A stretch of DNA of 64,000 nt from NCBI GenBank assembly GCA_012112355.1, contig GCA_012112355.1_3028.1; one strand, given 5' to 3'. This document shows positions 39,229 through 45,424 of this stretch, piece after piece. The first letter of the stretch is position 1. Every line of letters starts with the position of its first letter. The notes beneath the pieces were generated by a model, which was not told the origin of the DNA, searched no databases, and saw only the letters and a list, made by a program, of their open reading frames with translations. The translations under genes and the position numbers were made by a program. The stretch is from a phage.

Positions 39229-39429
39229 ATGGTACAAAAATTAATGGCACTTGTTAATGCCATAAAAGGTAATAAAAAACGTATAGCTTTTACTATTTCT
39301 GCTATGGTAGGAATTTTACTCTGGAACTTTATTTTATCACCAATTGCAATTGCGCATGGTGTTAATATTCCAGTAGTTACTCTTGATACATTTGTAGATT
39401 TAGCATTTGCTTTAGTTGGGTTGATTTAA
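39229..39429 (+). CDS. hypothetical small membrane protein, the only plus-strand ORF in the minus-strand early region
   Basis: 66 aa, two hydrophobic segments; AAGGAGG seven nt upstream of the ATG; stop overlaps the gene 61 stop on the other strand. Confidence 0.45.
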   Translation: MVQKLMALVNAIKGNKKRIAFTISAMVGILLWNFILSPIAIAHGVNIPVVTLDTFVDLAFALVGLI

Positions 39430-40454
39430 ATCTTAGCATATTTAGATAGCCGCATTTTAGCCATCAACCCCTGGGCAATATTATTTTTCATATATTCCAT
39501 AATTTGTTCAGGGGTTGCACCTTCCTTTCTAATCATATCATTAACATCTTTAGATTTCCAGGGAGATTTATCCCAAAACATAATCCTTTCTCCTGCATCA
39601 ACTAATTTAGTCATTCGTTTGATAGTGTCAGGGTGACGAGGTTCATTATCTAAAACCCACACTCGTCTATCTTTAAATGGAACAACTTCTAGGTCTAATT
39701 GACCACCCGTAATAGCTATACCATTTTCAATAAAAAGTGAATCTATAGGTCCTTCTAGAACATATACATCACCATCTTTAACTCGTTCGACTCCATATAT
39801 TTTTGTTGCCTCAGGATAAGCTTTAATGGTGATATATTTTTGAGGAGCATCTTTCTTTAATGCACGTCCTTGAAAAGACTCAGCTTTTCCATTAGCATTA
39901 TAAATTGGAATAACAAGACGAGGCTCAGAAATTTCCTTTTTGTATGTTCCTGGTGCTATGCTATTAACTAATTTAGGCCATTCGGTTGTAAACCAAAGAT
40001 ATTTCCATTTATCATTTGGAATACAACGAGCTTTTACATATTTTATAATTGGATGGTCTTCCGCCAGTTTATCTAATCTAACACATGACGGAAGAGATTT
40101 AATTATTTTCTTCTCAGGTTGTTTAGGAAGTTCTTTAGGTTTTTCTACTGGACGACTTTTACCTTTTTCTTTTCTTATTTCAAAGATATACTCACGATAT
40201 AAATCGGGTTCAAACTCCTTTAAATATATTCCGATTGGTGCATGATAGTTACAGTTATAACAATGAATATTTCCTTCATTATTATCACCATAATACCATC
40301 CACGAGCTTTATTCTGGTCGGTTTTTGAATCTCCACAAACAGGGCATCTAAACCGCAATTTAAAAGTTGAACTATTATTTACTTGTGTGAATTTAGGTAA
40401 ATGAGTTAATGCACGGTATGCAAACTCATTATCAATCCAAGGTATTGATGACAT
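39426..40454 (-). CDS. 61: DNA primase gp61
   Basis: 342 aa as T4 gp61; N-terminal zinc-binding CPVCGDS...CYNC followed by a TOPRIM region. Confidence 0.9.
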   Translation of the reverse strand: MSSIPWIDNEFAYRALTHLPKFTQVNNSSTFKLRFRCPVCGDSKTDQNKARGWYYGDNNEGNIHCYNCNYHAPIGIYLKEFEPDLYREYIFEIRKEKGKSRPVEKPKELPKQPEKKIIKSLPSCVRLDKLAEDHPIIKYVKARCIPNDKWKYLWFTTEWPKLVNSIAPGTYKKEISEPRLVIPIYNANGKAESFQGRALKKDAPQKYITIKAYPEATKIYGVERVKDGDVYVLEGPIDSLFIENGIAITGGQLDLEVVPFKDRRVWVLDNEPRHPDTIKRMTKLVDAGERIMFWDKSPWKSKDVNDMIRKEGATPEQIMEYMKNNIAQGLMAKMRLSKYAKI

Positions 40455-40456
40455 TT

Positions 40457-40621
40457 TTACTCTTCTTTTTCTTTAGATTCCTCTTTTTTCTTTTTAGGAA
40501 TCTGTTCAGGACCTTTATTTACTACAGCGCCTGACGTTGTTCCAGTAGAGATATTTTCAGGATTACCACCTGAATCTCCAGCGACTATATCTTCTTTGAT
40601 AAATTCTTTATATGTTTTCAT
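40457..40621 (-). CDS. hypothetical small acidic protein (~54 aa), below track cutoff
   Basis: Manual translation MKTYKEFIKEDIVAGDSGGNPENISTGTTSGAVVNKGPEQIPKKKKEESKEKEE; its ATG lies inside repeat copy A. Coordinates approximate. Confidence 0.3.
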   Translation of the reverse strand: MKTYKEFIKEDIVAGDSGGNPENISTGTTSGAVVNKGPEQIPKKKKEESKEKEE

Positions 40622-40667
40622 ATTAACCTCTATTCATAAAAGCATTAAAAATTTGGTCATCAATAGA
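40619..40667 (-). repeat. direct repeat copy A (~49 bp) spanning a stop/start junction
   Basis: catattaa(c)ctctattcataaaagcattaaaaatttggtcatcaataga; one mismatch against the copy at 40977-41025. Confidence 0.6.
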
Positions 40668-40979
40668 TGGCGCAGTAATATTTTCTGCATCATTTAGCAA
40701 ATCATTAATTTCATCAGATAGCATAACACATGTACCTTTATTTCCTGTAATTGTTACTGCACAATTACGAACGTTTTCTTTATCAAATTTTAGGTTAATA
40801 TTTTCGTAGTGAAAATCCTTTAATGCCGAATATATCTTTAAAATGAAATTGTCTTTTACTACAATAAACCCAACCTCACTATTAAAACGCGGTTCATGGA
40901 AACTGTAATAAACCTTTTCATCTATGAAATCGTATGAAATTTTTTCCATTTTTAAATATGAAAATTCAGAACTATACAT
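40623..40979 (-). CDS. hypothetical protein (61.1-like position), paralog of the next ORF
   Basis: 118 aa; ends SIDDQIFNAFMNRG; has one VVKDN-FILKIY unit. Confidence 0.5.
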   Translation of the reverse strand: MYSSEFSYLKMEKISYDFIDEKVYYSFHEPRFNSEVGFIVVKDNFILKIYSALKDFHYENINLKFDKENVRNCAVTITGNKGTCVMLSDEINDLLNDAENITAPSIDDQIFNAFMNRG

Positions 40980-41025
40980 ATTAATCTCTATTCATAAAAG
41001 CATTAAAAATTTGGTCATCAATAGA
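40977..41025 (-). repeat. direct repeat copy B (~49 bp)
   Basis: catattaa(t)ctctattcataaaagcattaaaaatttggtcatcaataga; encodes the last 14 codons of the 210-aa ORF plus TAATATG. Confidence 0.6.
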
Positions 41026-41613
41026 AACATTTACTTTAGGCTGTTCTTCAAACGGTAATTCATATCCACATATTACAATTTTGTGATCGATACCAAAATA
41101 CACAGAAGCAATATTATTAATATTATTTTCAGTGAAATCTAAATCAACATCAATATCTTTTTGACTAACGCTCAAAGGATAATTAATACGAATAATTCGA
41201 TTATCTTTAACAAAGATTCCACCGACATACTCTGTGCTGCGTTTAAAGTTTACACGTTTCCTAAATGAAAAATATTCAGGTTCTTTATGGGCTCGACTCA
41301 TAGGGCTTAAAGTGTATTCCGAATATGAAATATCAAATCCTACACCTTCAATATGAGCCAAAGTGTCATGATTAAACCAATTATAATCGTATGCCAAATC
41401 CATTAAATTGTAATATGTGAAAGGCACCGGATTAACATCATATGTTGTACCTTTAAAATCTGCCCAGGCAACGATTTCGTTATCTTTAACAATTACAAAA
41501 ATTGTGCCAATAAGATATCCACGGTTATTTTCATCAGGCGTTATATTATAACATTGTGCATCAGGAAATTTACCGTATTTAAACGGTGGATTTTTGTGCA
41601 TATAATAAATCAT
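40981..41613 (-). CDS. hypothetical protein (61.2-like position)
   Basis: 210 aa; two VKDN-containing units (FVIVKDNEIVAW, GIFVKDNRIIRINY); ends SIDDQIFNAFMNRD. Confidence 0.5.
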   Translation of the reverse strand: MIYYMHKNPPFKYGKFPDAQCYNITPDENNRGYLIGTIFVIVKDNEIVAWADFKGTTYDVNPVPFTYYNLMDLAYDYNWFNHDTLAHIEGVGFDISYSEYTLSPMSRAHKEPEYFSFRKRVNFKRSTEYVGGIFVKDNRIIRINYPLSVSQKDIDVDLDFTENNINNIASVYFGIDHKIVICGYELPFEEQPKVNVSIDDQIFNAFMNRD

Positions 41614-41614
41614 A

Positions 41615-41908
41615 TTATTCGCCTGTGATTTCGGTTACGATATTTTTGTTATTAAAGTTTTTATCGCAATACAGAACATAATTATACTGCATTACACCAC
41701 CAGACTTAAGTTGTTTTTGCACTTCAGCTTTCATTTCAGGACGATCGCGCTCAACGATATTCATAATATCCGCTTCAATTTGAGTTTCAACTTCAGTCTG
41801 ATCTGCAGTCATAGACCATTCACACAAATCTTTATCATATCCTGCCATAGCAGGCTGAGCAGCACAAGAAGCCAAAGTAAAAATTGTAGCAAAAATAAAT
41901 TTTTTCAT
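41615..41908 (-). CDS. sp: periplasmic Spackle protein Sp
   Basis: 97 aa as T4 Sp; MKKFIFATIFTLASCAAQPAMA signal peptide. Confidence 0.8.
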   Translation of the reverse strand: MKKFIFATIFTLASCAAQPAMAGYDKDLCEWSMTADQTEVETQIEADIMNIVERDRPEMKAEVQKQLKSGGVMQYNYVLYCDKNFNNKNIVTEITGE

Positions 41909-41968
41909 GATAATCTCCTCAGTAGTTTATGTTTATATAGTATCTCAATTTCCAACAAAAGTAAACAG

Positions 41969-42280
41969 TTATTTTAAAATTTCTGCGTAATCACATGTTA
42001 CAAACTGTTTCTCTAGCTTGACGATTTTACGAAAGTATCTTTTGCATTGGCGAATCTGCCTCTTCGTAGGACGTACAGCAAACTTAATAAATTCCACTCG
42101 ACCAAATGGAGGACTTTCTTCTGCTGGAATATCTAACACCAATTCCCACGTATCTGCAATAAGTGCTTTGAATTGAGTATTTTTCCTGACGTTATACGGA
42201 GTAGGTTTAAATAAAACAATATGCATATTATCCTCGGCAATCCACTTCGCACACTTTCTTGTCATCAATGAAAGCTTCAA
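41969..42280 (-). CDS. hypothetical basic protein (61.4-like position)
   Basis: 103-aa ORF between dmd and sp. Confidence 0.45.
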   Translation of the reverse strand: MKLSLMTRKCAKWIAEDNMHIVLFKPTPYNVRKNTQFKALIADTWELVLDIPAEESPPFGRVEFIKFAVRPTKRQIRQCKRYFRKIVKLEKQFVTCDYAEILK

Positions 42281-42410
42281 CTAATGCTTTATTAACTTCA
42301 GCATATTGAGTAGTAGCCCATTGAACGTCATCTTTCATCATTGTGATTTCTTTAGTAAACATACTTTCGTTCTTAAACCACCCCATAAAAACTACTTTTA
42401 CCAATTCCAT
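42228..42410 (-). CDS. dmd: Dmd, discriminator of mRNA degradation (antitoxin against RnlA/LsoA)
   Basis: 60 aa, MELVKVVFMGWFKNESMFTKEITMMKDDVQWATTQYAEVNKALVEAFIDDKKVCEVDCRG; matches T4 Dmd. Confidence 0.85.
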   Translation of the reverse strand: MELVKVVFMGWFKNESMFTKEITMMKDDVQWATTQYAEVNKALVEAFIDDKKVCEVDCRG

Positions 42411-42439
42411 AACAATCTCCTCATTTAACCAACAAGACT

Positions 42440-42469
42440 ACTATACCATAGTCTTGTCAGCTTGTAAAC
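42440..42469 (-). promoter_or_regulatory. T4-type early promoter upstream of dmd
   Basis: GTTTAC-aagctgacaagactatgg-TATAGT on the minus strand. Confidence 0.45.
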
Positions 42470-43896
42470 TAAAATTTTAATTCATTCGCCAAAGCATCTA
42501 ACTGAGCTCGAGTGGATTCATTTCTTTGATAGCGATTCTGCTCAGCCTGAATCTGTTGTGAACCTGCTACTTCACTCACTTCAGTTGGAGTAGAATCTTG
42601 TTCAATTTCTACCCATTTTTGGTTTCCTTTTTGAACACCCATCAAAAACTTATTCCACTTATTCTTATCACCATATCGTGATTTGATTTGCTTAATGAGT
42701 TGCTGTTCAGCAGCTGCTAGCTCCTCGGTTTCAATGACCGCAAGCATAAAATCAGCTGTTGCTGGAAGACCAGCAGATTCTGCGATATCACTCATGTTAA
42801 CATCAGAAGAGTCCCAAGCTTGTTTACCGACCTGTGCTGCAGTCCAAAGAACAGTTTCGGTTTCAACAGCAAGAGCACGCAATTCCTCTGCAATAGCTTT
42901 AACAGTTGCGTAACTATTTTCTGAATAAACTCTAATGCGGCAAGATTTACAAATACCTAGATAGTCGACAATAATGATTGTTGGAACAAAATTCTTTTTG
43001 AGCTTCAATTCATTCAAGAGAGACCTGAATGTGTTAGCATCTGCCCCACCAGTAGGGTACTGTTTAACAATTAAACGACCGAGAGTAGATTTCTCACGCC
43101 ATTTTTCCATTTTTCCTTTATACTCAGCGTAAGAAATATGCCCATCATCAATGTCATCAAGAGAAACATCGAGCATATTAGCGTCAATACGTTTAGCACA
43201 GACTTCTTCTGCCATTTCCATGGAGATATAAAGAACGTTATGTCCAAGCTGTAAATAATCTGCTGCTAATGAACACAATCCTAATGATTTACCAACGTTA
43301 ACGCCAGCCATTAAAACGTTCAGTGTTCCAGTTTCAGCTCCGCCTTTAGTAATTTTGTTTAGAATTCTGAGTTTAAATGGAACCTTACGAGCTTTATTCA
43401 TATAAGATAGCCAACGTGCTTCATAGTCATCCATCCAATCATGGCCAACGTAGCTATCAAATGAAATTGATAATGCTTGTCGCATGATGTCAGGAATAGC
43501 ACCAACATCCGGCATTTTCTTATTTCGTTTTTCCGGAGGAAGCTCAGCATTAGTTTGAATTTCGATTATTTTAGACGTAGCATTAAACATCGCCCTTTGC
43601 TGAACATATTTTTCTGTTTCTTTTACTAACCAGCTGTGGTCTTCCGGAGAATCAGCCAGTTTTGAAATAAGTGTTTTTACACCAGAATATTCTGTTTCAG
43701 TAAATGAACTATTTTCTAATGCAACATTTAACGCATTAATAGATGGAACGCTATGATACTCATTAACATGAGATTTAATTAATTTGAATGTATTTTTAGC
43801 TGGACCACTTTCAAAATATTCTGAATCCATATATGGCCAAACTTTTGAAAAATAAGCTTGATCAAATATGAGATGAGAAAGAATAATTTCTACCAC
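42469..43896 (-). CDS. 41: replicative DNA helicase gp41 (DnaB-like)
   Basis: 475 aa as T4 gp41; MVEIILSHLIFDQAYFSKVWPYMDSEYF; Walker A GVNVGKS. Confidence 0.9.
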   Translation of the reverse strand: MVEIILSHLIFDQAYFSKVWPYMDSEYFESGPAKNTFKLIKSHVNEYHSVPSINALNVALENSSFTETEYSGVKTLISKLADSPEDHSWLVKETEKYVQQRAMFNATSKIIEIQTNAELPPEKRNKKMPDVGAIPDIMRQALSISFDSYVGHDWMDDYEARWLSYMNKARKVPFKLRILNKITKGGAETGTLNVLMAGVNVGKSLGLCSLAADYLQLGHNVLYISMEMAEEVCAKRIDANMLDVSLDDIDDGHISYAEYKGKMEKWREKSTLGRLIVKQYPTGGADANTFRSLLNELKLKKNFVPTIIIVDYLGICKSCRIRVYSENSYATVKAIAEELRALAVETETVLWTAAQVGKQAWDSSDVNMSDIAESAGLPATADFMLAVIETEELAAAEQQLIKQIKSRYGDKNKWNKFLMGVQKGNQKWVEIEQDSTPTEVSEVAGSQQIQAEQNRYQRNESTRAQLDALANELKF

Positions 43897-43905
43897 ACTT
43901 ACTCC

Positions 43906-44268
43906 TTAAAAGAATTTAAATTTTTTCTTTGACCTTTTATTAAATGCATCTTGCAGTTGCATTGTAATACATTTTTCTACATGAGGAGCTAACTCAGCTT
44001 TTCTTTCTTGGTCAAGAACAGCAAAGTCCATTACAACCTTTCCATCAACCCAATCCAGTTTTGTTACATACACAATGTGTGTAGAACCATCTTCTAGTTT
44101 AATGACAATCTCCTGGATAACATTTTCCATAGCGGATTTAATTATCTTAAGAGATTCATTAAAAAGACGTTCTTTTCTTTCTTCTTCCCCCTCCGAAGAG
44201 GGGGATTCATCGATAATTTCTAGATCTAAATCTAAATCATCTTTATTCATTAAATTCTTCCATATCAC
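43906..44268 (-). CDS. 40: head vertex assembly chaperone gp40
   Basis: ~114-120 aa ORF between uvsX and 41 as in T4. Confidence 0.65.
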   Translation of the reverse strand: MIWKNLMNKDDLDLDLEIIDESPSSEGEEERKERLFNESLKIIKSAMENVIQEIVIKLEDGSTHIVYVTKLDWVDGKVVMDFAVLDQERKAELAPHVEKCITMQLQDAFNKRSKKKFKFF

Positions 44269-45424
44269 TTAACTGCTCGAGGTCAGTTTCTAAATCAGCA
44301 GCTGATTTACTTTTACTTTCTGGAGATTTAAATTTTTCAACCTTTGAGTTAATCAATTCATCAACTTCAGCTTCAACAATTTCATTACTATCAATAGCAC
44401 CTAACTGATAAGCACGTTTAATAGCATCTCGGAATGGTTGATGCTTAAATAAAGGACCCCAGAATGTAGTGCAGTTGGTATCTTTTGCACGCCAAGATTT
44501 TTCTTCGCGAACCATCTCGCCGGTTTCTTCATCAAGAAATTCACGAGCATACCAGCCATTTTTAGGTTTTACCACGAATCCTAATTCTAGAGCCATATCT
44601 AACAATCCAGAATAAGGATCGATACCACCGTCAAATTTAACATCAATAAAGAATTTACTTTTTTCTTTAACGGTACGAGATTTTTCTACATTTAGAACAA
44701 ATTGATACCCCTGAAGATCAGAACCATCTTTAATTTGACGTTTACCGATAATGAATACAGTATCAGCCGAATACATTACGCCTGTACCACCTGTCATCAC
44801 GGTTTTACTAAACATTTCAATGGTTTCAATTGTATGGTTAACCGCAACGCACGGAATATTTTTAATGCTAAAATAAGGAGTAACAATACGGAATAATGAC
44901 TTCAGTGATTTAGCACGAGTCATATCTGCCACAGATTTTTCATTCAAGGCATCTTCAGTTTCTTTCTTAGAAGCCATATTACCAATTGAGTCGATGAATA
45001 CAATAACCTTTTCACCACGCTCAATAGCTTCAAGCTGGTTCACCATATCAATTTTCAGCTGTTCAACTGACTGAATCGGCGTATGAATTACTCGTTCCGG
45101 GTCAACTCCCATGGATCGCAAATAAGCTGGAGTAATACCAAATTCGCTATCATAGAATAGACAAACCGCGTCAGGATATTTGTTTAAATATGCCGCAACC
45201 ATAGTCAAAGACATATTTGATTTAAAGTGTTTAGAAGGCCCTGCGAAAATAGTTAAACCAGACTGCATACCGCCATCAATCGCACCAGAAATAGCGATAT
45301 TAAGCATTGGGATTTTTGTACGGATTACATCCTTTTCATTAAAGAATTTAGATGTAGTCAGTTCAGCAGTCATTTTAGAAGTGGAAGCTTTAATCAAACG
45401 GGATTTTAAATCTGCAATAGACAT
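44243..45424 (-). CDS. uvsX: recombinase UvsX (RecA-like)
   Basis: 393 aa; MSIADLKSRLIKASTSKMTAELTTSKFFNEKDVIRTKIPMLNIAISG...GPSKHFKS (Walker A). Confidence 0.9.
   Translation of the reverse strand: MSIADLKSRLIKASTSKMTAELTTSKFFNEKDVIRTKIPMLNIAISGAIDGGMQSGLTIFAGPSKHFKSNMSLTMVAAYLNKYPDAVCLFYDSEFGITPAYLRSMGVDPERVIHTPIQSVEQLKIDMVNQLEAIERGEKVIVFIDSIGNMASKKETEDALNEKSVADMTRAKSLKSLFRIVTPYFSIKNIPCVAVNHTIETIEMFSKTVMTGGTGVMYSADTVFIIGKRQIKDGSDLQGYQFVLNVEKSRTVKEKSKFFIDVKFDGGIDPYSGLLDMALELGFVVKPKNGWYAREFLDEETGEMVREEKSWRAKDTNCTTFWGPLFKHQPFRDAIKRAYQLGAIDSNEIVEAEVDELINSKVEKFKSPESKSKSAADLETDLEQLSDMEEFNE

Follow-up and report, generated by a model that had tools for sequence, protein, structure and literature searches.

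The closest described counterpart of the locus analyzed here is the two-gene locus formed by dmd and 61.4 in bacteriophage T4, which is driven by an early promoter that precedes dmd and which had undergone a segmental amplification in every resistant line obtained when T4 was evolved on toxIN-bearing E. coli (Srikant, Guegler & Laub, eLife 2022, PMC9391042). In that study, infection was restored by gene 61.4 alone, and the active agent was found to be its protein rather than its RNA, as deletion of the start codon kills the function and a recoded gene keeps it. The 61.4 protein was further shown to co-immunoprecipitate with ToxN, and disruption of the gene to cause a loss of plaquing of ~100-fold on chromosomal toxIN, a putative ToxN site at the 3′ end of the gene being irrelevant to the function (PMC9391042). 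Gene 61.4 was renamed tifA (for ToxN inhibitory factor A), with a product of 85 amino acids, and the region was stated to be an anti-TA island, the other genes of which were called attractive anti-toxin candidates (PMC9391042). More recently, the homing endonuclease SegB was reported to promote the amplification of the tifA locus (2026 paper).

At the mechanistic level, TifA was shown to bind both ToxN and RNA, so that ToxN becomes sequestered on the RNA of the cell (Guegler et al., NAR 2023, PMC10853763). RNA binding, the interaction with ToxN, and neutralization all depend on a basic helix in the C-terminal part, which has P53-T54 as its cap and includes K55, R56, and R59, and the residue found at position 41, within a variable loop, sets the potency of the protein: F41, the T4 residue, is weak, and S41 or H41 is stronger (PMC10853763). 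As an inhibitor, T4 TifA is rather weak: it fails against plasmid-borne toxIN unless its gene is amplified or it carries F41S/H (PMC9391042; PMC10853763).

Two other systems help to situate TifA. The first is its operon partner Dmd (T4 gp61.5), which neutralizes RnlA (PMC9391042). Dmd and TifA are alike in being co-operonic small phage proteins that silence RNase toxins, and they share the same logic, in which a small phage protein takes the place of a labile host antitoxin. However, their sequences are unrelated and their isoelectric points lie far apart (4.7, hence acidic, for Dmd vs. 9.8 for TifA); moreover, Dmd binds its toxin directly, with no RNA requirement reported, and targets a type II toxin when TifA targets a type III one. 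The second is ToxI, together with the pseudo-ToxI through which phage PhiTE escapes the toxIN system of P. atrosepticum. Pseudo-ToxI is likewise a phage countermeasure and is directed at the same target, ToxN, but ToxI and pseudo-ToxI are RNA antitoxins that occupy the RNA groove of ToxN, whereas TifA is a protein whose mRNA is dispensable. In other words, and unlike ToxI, TifA acts with RNA, not as RNA.

The island between genes 41 and 61

Here, we analyzed a 64,000-nucleotide stretch of phage DNA (contig GCA_012112355.1_3028.1 of assembly GCA_012112355.1; hereafter, the window), in which the original prediction had recognized dmd, a basic unknown ORF of 103 aa, and sp at positions 41615–42410, and had proposed that they form a counter-defence block. 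The ORF map agrees with the three ORFs and with their orientation, as all genes at 39.4–45.4 kb of the window lie on the minus strand: uvsX (44243–45424), gene 40 (43906–44268), and the helicase gene 41 (42469–43896) on one side, and the primase gene 61 (39426–40454) on the other. A megablast search with positions 41400–42600 matched 658 phage records, with a best identity of 98.7%, nearly all of which are T4-like phages (Tequatrovirus) of Escherichia, Shigella, or Yersinia. Over positions 40400–42500, the best match is phage teqdroes (98.8%), and the stretch from dmd to 61.2 shares 89.6% nucleotide identity with the T4 record. Judging from these matches, the window phage is a T4-like phage (Tequatrovirus) that is distinct from T4 itself.

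With a probability of about 0.95, we consider that this locus is the known Tequatrovirus accessory island flanked by gene 41 (helicase) and gene 61 (primase), in which dmd, tifA, sp, and adfA encode proteins with published activities. What was determined here are the gene boundaries, the protein identities, the functional residues, the synteny, and the promoter and ribosome-binding signals; for the biochemical activities, we rely on published work on proteins that are identical or nearly so. T4, T2, and RB69 share this gene order, with dmd followed by tifA, and RB69 carries imm.1 and imm between tifA and sp. We searched the window for a second copy or an amplification of dmd, tifA, and sp and found each of them in single copy. 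Between positions 40300 and 42700, neither a known RNA element (Rfam scan at E ≤ 1) nor an intrinsic-terminator-like site was found, and NCBIfam offered no model for the six island proteins. In Pfam, by contrast, the matches of the dmd, tifA, sp, and adfA products to Dmd, DUF7279, T4_Spackle, and AdfA lie well clear of the respective gathering thresholds.

The first gene of the island, dmd (61.5; 42228–42410, minus strand), encodes a protein of 60 aa that had been named correctly from its sequence: it matches the Pfam Dmd family over its full length (PF17587; residues 1–60; 154.4 bits; E = 9.3e-46), the crystallized T4 antitoxin in PDB (5hy3_B, “Antitoxin Dmd”; E = 6.8e-37), and PHROG 2102, and 59 of its 60 residues are those of T4 Dmd. 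It would thus be expected to bind and neutralize the RNase toxins RnlA and LsoA. Between the stop of gene 41 (42469) and the start of dmd, the promoter scan returned its best match in the region at 42440–42468 on the minus strand, an early-type sigma-70 promoter of the form TTTACA-17-TATAGT with a TG extension (10/12 with TG), and it listed no site between dmd and tifA. This early promoter downstream of gene 41 would drive a two-gene dmd–tifA operon transcribed early in infection. Within this operon, the two genes are joined by a TAA-T-ATG junction, through which the translation of tifA may be coupled to that of dmd; the same junction recurs further down the island, at sp/adfA, adfA/ORF118, and ORF118/61.1.

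Identity and start of tifA

The gene that follows dmd is tifA (61.4; 41969–42226, minus strand). By tblastn, alignment, and pairwise count, its 85-aa product is identical at 85 of 85 positions to T4 orf 61.4 (records S57514.1 and OZ209057.1), and it is this 100% identity to an experimentally characterized protein that settles its identification: the middle ORF is TifA, with the exact sequence of the type member of the family. It also matches Pfam DUF7279 (PF23945; 72.7 bits vs. a gathering threshold of 24.5; E = 2.3e-20) and PHROG 2375 (E = 2.4e-38), and a search of PDB sequences returned nothing at E ≤ 1, the protein having no solved structure. The position at 61.4 and the basicity that had been attributed to it were right (pI 9.8), but its length is 85 aa and not 103 aa, and it is no longer an unknown.

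The idea that the 61.4 ORF could be a chance open frame in an otherwise noncoding dmd–sp interval has nothing but its small size to recommend it and can be discarded: the protein is conserved in 642 phage records, with identities down to about 40%, it belongs to a Pfam and a PHROG family, and its translation is required by experiment (PMC9391042). Moreover, M1, W27, E28, V44, P53–R59, K62, and R66 are invariant among five homologs from four genera, including those of RB69 and IME523 and the two copies of VR5. Compared with T4, TifA shows no protein difference in the window, and the sequence of 85 aa, the position after dmd, the TAA-T-ATG junction, the early promoter, and the F41 allele are all shared; the two phages differ instead by the allele of AdfA and by an extra 118-aa ORF in the window. 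The TifA of RB69, a more potent ToxN inhibitor, belongs to the same family, with an overall identity of 57%, and shares with the window protein the motif P53-T54-K55-R56-Q57-I58-R59 and the beta-sheet region; it differs by having H41 where the window protein has F41 and by ending without the C-terminal tail of 15 residues.

With regard to the start of the gene, the length of 103 aa stems from the longest mechanical frame (41969–42280), which opens on a TTG located 53 nt inside dmd, so that its first 18 codons fall within dmd but in a different reading frame. Directly before this TTG (42280) comes an in-frame TAG, and no Shine-Dalgarno sequence is found ahead of the TTG. By contrast with these upstream signals, the ATG at 42226 stands one base past the dmd stop (GGA-TAA-T-ATG) and is preceded by a GAGGA in the last dmd codons, which acts as Shine-Dalgarno, and the annotated genes of T4, T2, and RB69 all begin at the equivalent ATG. 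In the Dhakavirus VR5, the tifA homolog starts 121 nt after dmd and the upstream frame closes after 11 codons; in the Kanagawavirus IME523, the gene upstream of the tifA homolog is not dmd, and the frame closes after 5 codons. In both phages, the alignment of the homologs with the 85-aa form nevertheless begins at its residue 1. Because of the overlap with dmd, of the lack of a ribosome-binding site at the TTG, of the start used in relatives, and of homologs aligning from M1, tifA spans 41969–42226 and encodes 85 aa, and the length of 103 aa is a mechanical over-call; the 5′ extension (42227–42280, minus strand) corresponds to the 3′ end of dmd and is judged untranslated in that frame.

It could be argued that the product is N-terminally extended, either with a TTG start at 42280 (103 aa) or with an ATG start at 42265 (98 aa), and would thus be a TifA variant with an additional segment, as the 18 codons upstream of ATG 42226, which contain both a TTG and an ATG, are open here and in RB69 alike. 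We find this very improbable. The open stretch begins right after a stop codon and lies within the conserved dmd coding sequence, and its openness in RB69 follows from the conservation of the dmd 3′ end, read in another frame; besides, 18 open codons are plausible by chance, with a probability of (61/64)^18 ~0.4. Neither upstream start has a Shine-Dalgarno sequence, when GAGGA precedes 42226, and annotations use 85 aa (T4 and T2) or 70 aa (RB69). Furthermore, the 85-aa ORF is sufficient on its own, and deletion of its ATG abolishes the function (PMC9391042), and in VR5 and IME523, where there is no overlap with dmd, the upstream frames are closed and the homologs start at M1. Both the 103-aa TTG reading and the 98-aa ATG reading were rejected on the grounds of dmd overlap, missing ribosome-binding site, and homologs from M1.

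Inhibition of ToxN by TifA

Numbered from ATG 42226, the window protein retains every residue to which a function has been assigned, namely F41, P53, T54, K55, R56, and R59. On this basis, ToxN inhibition, carried over from the identical T4 protein, is supported as the predicted activity of TifA in the window phage. According to the mechanism worked out for the T4 protein, its Lys/Arg-rich C-terminal helix, capped by Pro-Thr, would bind RNA, while its N-terminal beta-sheet and its variable loop (residue 41) would contact ToxN, the endoribonuclease of the type III toxIN system; ToxN would then be locked into a large ribonucleoprotein assembly, for the most part on 16S rRNA, leaving the phage transcripts uncut. 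ToxN cleaves RNA at the motif GAAAU. The corresponding GAAAT occurs at 357 sites in the window vs. about 320 expected, a count that is uninformative.

The structure prediction proposed for the ORF was run as well. A single-sequence AlphaFold2 model of TifA places strands at residues 2–6, 22–24, and 27–31 and a helix at residues 55–69, with a mean pLDDT of only 45.6, too low for a fold search; at the level of secondary structure only, the order of the elements in this low-confidence model is compatible with the published order.

A different view of the protein would be that ToxN inhibition is a side activity and that TifA is mainly a general RNA-binding protein, or is tuned to another RNase toxin of the natural host. 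Several features could be read in this way: the T4-type TifA is too weak for multicopy toxIN; it binds RNA, ssDNA, and dsDNA with no obvious sequence specificity (PMC10853763); distant homologs neutralized none of the ToxN/TenpN proteins against which they were tested (PMC10853763); and some phages, such as VR5, carry two diverged tifA copies. However, the ~100-fold loss of plaquing caused by the disruption of tifA in T4 is specific to active chromosomal toxIN, and the TifA proteins of T2, T4, T6, and RB69 neutralize four closely related ToxNs and not distant ones (PMC10853763), which shows that they are specific. The ToxN escape mutations and the F41 substitutions of TifA map to a predicted interface (PMC10853763). 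We therefore hold the side-activity view to be unlikely, and it would in any case add to the main explanation rather than exclude it.

Coming back to TifA as a ToxN inhibitor, and since tifA is present once in the window, in its T4 form (F41), the window phage should, like T4, overcome chromosomal toxIN and not multicopy toxIN. Given the modest potency of the identical T4 protein, T4-type TifA may have a better natural target than the ToxN encoded by the E. coli plasmid used in the tests.

Spackle and the AdfA-type genes

Downstream of tifA, sp (61.3; 41615–41908, minus strand) encodes Spackle, which had rightly been described as a 97-aa protein with a signal peptide. It matches Pfam T4_Spackle (PF25676; residues 1–96; 152.3 bits; E = 5.8e-45) and the PDB entry “Protein spackle” (6x6o, also 6xc0/6xc1; E = 7.7e-60), 90 of its 97 residues are identical to those of the T4 record used, and the crystallized mature protein (7cn6) begins at residue 23, after the sequence ...QPAMA, as expected if a signal peptide is cleaved off there. 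Spackle acts in the periplasm, where it inhibits the gp5 tail lysozyme, and mediates superinfection exclusion (PMC7677548; PMC7650644), and in the window phage it would block the gp5 lysozyme of superinfecting T-even phages. The proposed counter-defence block thus holds for dmd and tifA but not for sp: Spackle acts on competing phages and not on host immunity, and its role is superinfection exclusion rather than counter-defence.

A promoter has been reported downstream of tifA in T4 (PMC9391042). Upstream of sp, a weak promoter-like site, read from the sequence, lies at 41937–41965 on the minus strand (TTTACT-17-TACTAT; 8/12), where it scores below the threshold of the promoter scan; sp might be transcribed from this weak promoter of its own. 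As a side observation, the regions comprising the ribosome-binding site and the start of sp (41903–41921) and of dmd (42405–42423) match each other as a direct repeat of 19 nt, imperfect except for a core of 10 nt that is exact, the two copies being 502 nt apart. The amplification junctions described in T4 carry 6–10-bp microhomology (PMC9391042), and the 10-nt core is of the same kind, as a candidate only.

The next gene, adfA (61.2; 40981–41613, minus strand), encodes a 210-aa homolog of the anti-DarT factor AdfA (PMC9391042; PMC11257639), as indicated by its match to Pfam AdfA (PF23813; residues 1–209 to positions 1–210 of a profile of 211; 459.1 bits; E = 2e-138); it is 83% identical to the AdfA of RB69 and 75% identical to that of T4. 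It would be predicted to bind DarT ADP-ribosyltransferase toxins. At residue 164 of AdfA, a His permits the neutralization of DarT1 and an Arg does not (PMC11257639). The equivalent position in the window protein (residue 167, corresponding to RB69 164) is an Asn, when T4 has a His and RB69 an Arg; a pattern scan of IMG/VR for the residue-164 codon returned only four contigs, of which three encode His and one encodes Asn, a number too small to derive allele frequencies. In T4, AdfN (gp30.3) is the dominant factor, and a deletion of adfA accordingly shows no phenotype with regard to DarTG1 (PMC11257639). As the Asn allele is neither the neutralizing His nor the inactive Arg, the contribution of AdfA in the window phage is uncertain.

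Adjacent to adfA lies a 118-aa ORF (ORF118; 40623–40979, minus strand), which belongs to a PHROG family of its own (PHROG 4122; E = 2e-72) and aligns by BLASTP with residues 111–209 of AdfA (37% identity; E = 2e-10). It also reaches Pfam AdfA (31.9 bits vs. a cut-off of 27), but over positions 113–211 of the profile only. Compared with AdfA (gp61.2; LeRoux et al. 2022), ORF118 corresponds to the C-terminal half, down to a nearly identical ending (SIDDQIFNAFMNR), and lacks the whole of the N-terminal half that AdfA possesses. From these alignments, ORF118 is a single-domain paralog of one AdfA half, and is neither an AdfA nor the 61.1 of T4. The latter is encoded further downstream by a 54-aa ORF (40457–40621, minus strand; PHROG 1823), which occupies the same position as in T4 and T2 and is identical to T4 gp61.1 at 52 of 54 residues. 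What had been described as 61.1/61.2 paralogs are hence 61.2/AdfA, of 210 aa, and a true half-paralog of 118 aa; the assignment of the latter as 61.1 did not stand, since the 54-aa ORF is 61.1.

The C-terminal half of AdfA, matched by ORF118, is also the half that holds the DarT-specificity residue. With regard to its distribution, the N-terminal half of AdfA was counted in 487 records of the phage collection, ORF118 in 333, and TifA in 642, and the ORF118 cassette is carried by roughly one in two T4-like records but not by T4. T2, which is said to lack adfA (PMC11257639), has only an ORF118-type gene, annotated “61.2”, when the window phage has both adfA and ORF118. The 358-bp ORF118 cassette is bracketed by two copies of a 49-nt direct repeat (repeat family D1) that are 98% identical and spaced by 358 nt, the first at 40619–40667, at the ORF118 3′ end, and the second at 40977–41025, where it covers the adfA 3′ end and the ORF118 start; in T4, the cassette is missing, and the gap falls precisely on the repeat. 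A tentative and rather doubtful proposal would be that ORF118 is an anti-toxin factor with a target of its own, and that the Asn-allele AdfA is adapted to a variant of DarT distinct from DarT1.

Overall, the original prediction was correct in spirit. The anti-defence role that it gave to the ORF at the 61.4 position and to the 61.2-type ORF is borne out by publications in which TifA is a ToxN inhibitor and AdfA an anti-DarT factor, and each of the systems that it suggested as targets, toxIN, RnlAB, and DarTG, is matched in print by tifA, dmd, and adfA, respectively. It was wrong about the length and the start of the ORF and about the identity of 61.1, and it was not new: the interval that it flagged is already known biology, with nothing novel left for tifA. 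Its value is one of calibration, as sequence context alone had led to an anti-toxin function, and to the right defence systems, that were shown experimentally in 2022–2023. There is also a gain for annotation, as nearly all of the matching phage records still label tifA “hypothetical”: this hypothetical protein can be renamed TifA (85 aa), and its 210-aa neighbor AdfA. Finally, the sole leads with any novelty, both outside the interval initially flagged, are the cassette that carries ORF118 and the Asn variant of AdfA, which are modest leads for work on DarTG counter-defence.

Direct repeat and gene states at the adfA/ORF118 locus

The C-terminal half of AdfA, the anti-DarT factor, has a stand-alone paralogue in ORF118 (PHROG 4122; 40623-40979, minus strand), which is found in 333 phage records. 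In several records it is labeled "major capsid domain-containing protein," and the T2 label for the ORF118-type gene is "gp61.2." ORF118 is bracketed by two copies of a 49-nt direct repeat (40619-40667 and 40977-41025), which in the window are 98% identical and spaced 358 nt apart, which cover the 3′ end common to adfA and ORF118 (...SIDDQIFNAFMNR-G/D-stop), and which enclose a 358-bp cassette. T4 is devoid of this cassette, its absence being exact at the repeat, and T2 harbors the ORF118-type gene only, whereas the window differs from both in encoding adfA together with an ORF118-type gene. Given these three states, with a cassette boundary falling at the repeat, the adfA/ORF118 locus seems to switch from one state to another through recombination at the 49-nt repeat.

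Allelic variation of AdfA

According to an earlier study, the neutralization of DarT1 is decided by AdfA residue 164 in RB69 numbering (PMC11257639). The equivalent of this residue, an Arg in RB69, is an Asn in the window (residue 167; gene at 40981-41613, minus strand) and a His in T4, and the Asn allele is also present in one IMG/VR contig. Moreover, two divergent classes of allele are distinguishable across the phage collection in the N-terminal half of AdfA, which in the window is only 61.5% identical to its T4 counterpart.

Repeats near the sp and dmd starts

At both sp and dmd, the region of the ribosome-binding site and start codon carries one copy of a 19-nt imperfect direct repeat (41903-41921 and 42405-42423); the copies are 502 nt apart and identical over a 10-nt core (AATCTCCTCA, plus strand). 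They enclose a single dmd-tifA unit and are candidates for the microhomology used in segmental amplification of the kind described for dmd-tifA in T4 (PMC9391042). We also read from the sequence a 9-bp inverted repeat (ACAAGACTA ... TAGTCTTGT; about 42432-42457, minus strand), just 3′ of the gene 41 stop, which overlaps the dmd promoter at its -10 element and was not called by the terminator scan because it is devoid of a U-run.

tifA annotation and variability of the 41-61 island

In nearly all the phage records listed, the homolog of tifA, the ToxN inhibitor gene, is a "hypothetical protein"; the label "DNA polymerase" or "putative DNA polymerase" that it bears in a few (BW-1, HP3, and JLBYU31) is a propagated annotation error. 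The 41-61 island of the Dhakavirus VR5 harbors two diverged TifA-family genes (1501-1740 and 2534-2755 of its locus), whose products both display the RPTKRQIR motif, and in RB69, which has several additional small ORFs, imm and imm.1 are inserted between tifA and sp. Overall, the gene content of the 41-61 island is highly variable across genera.
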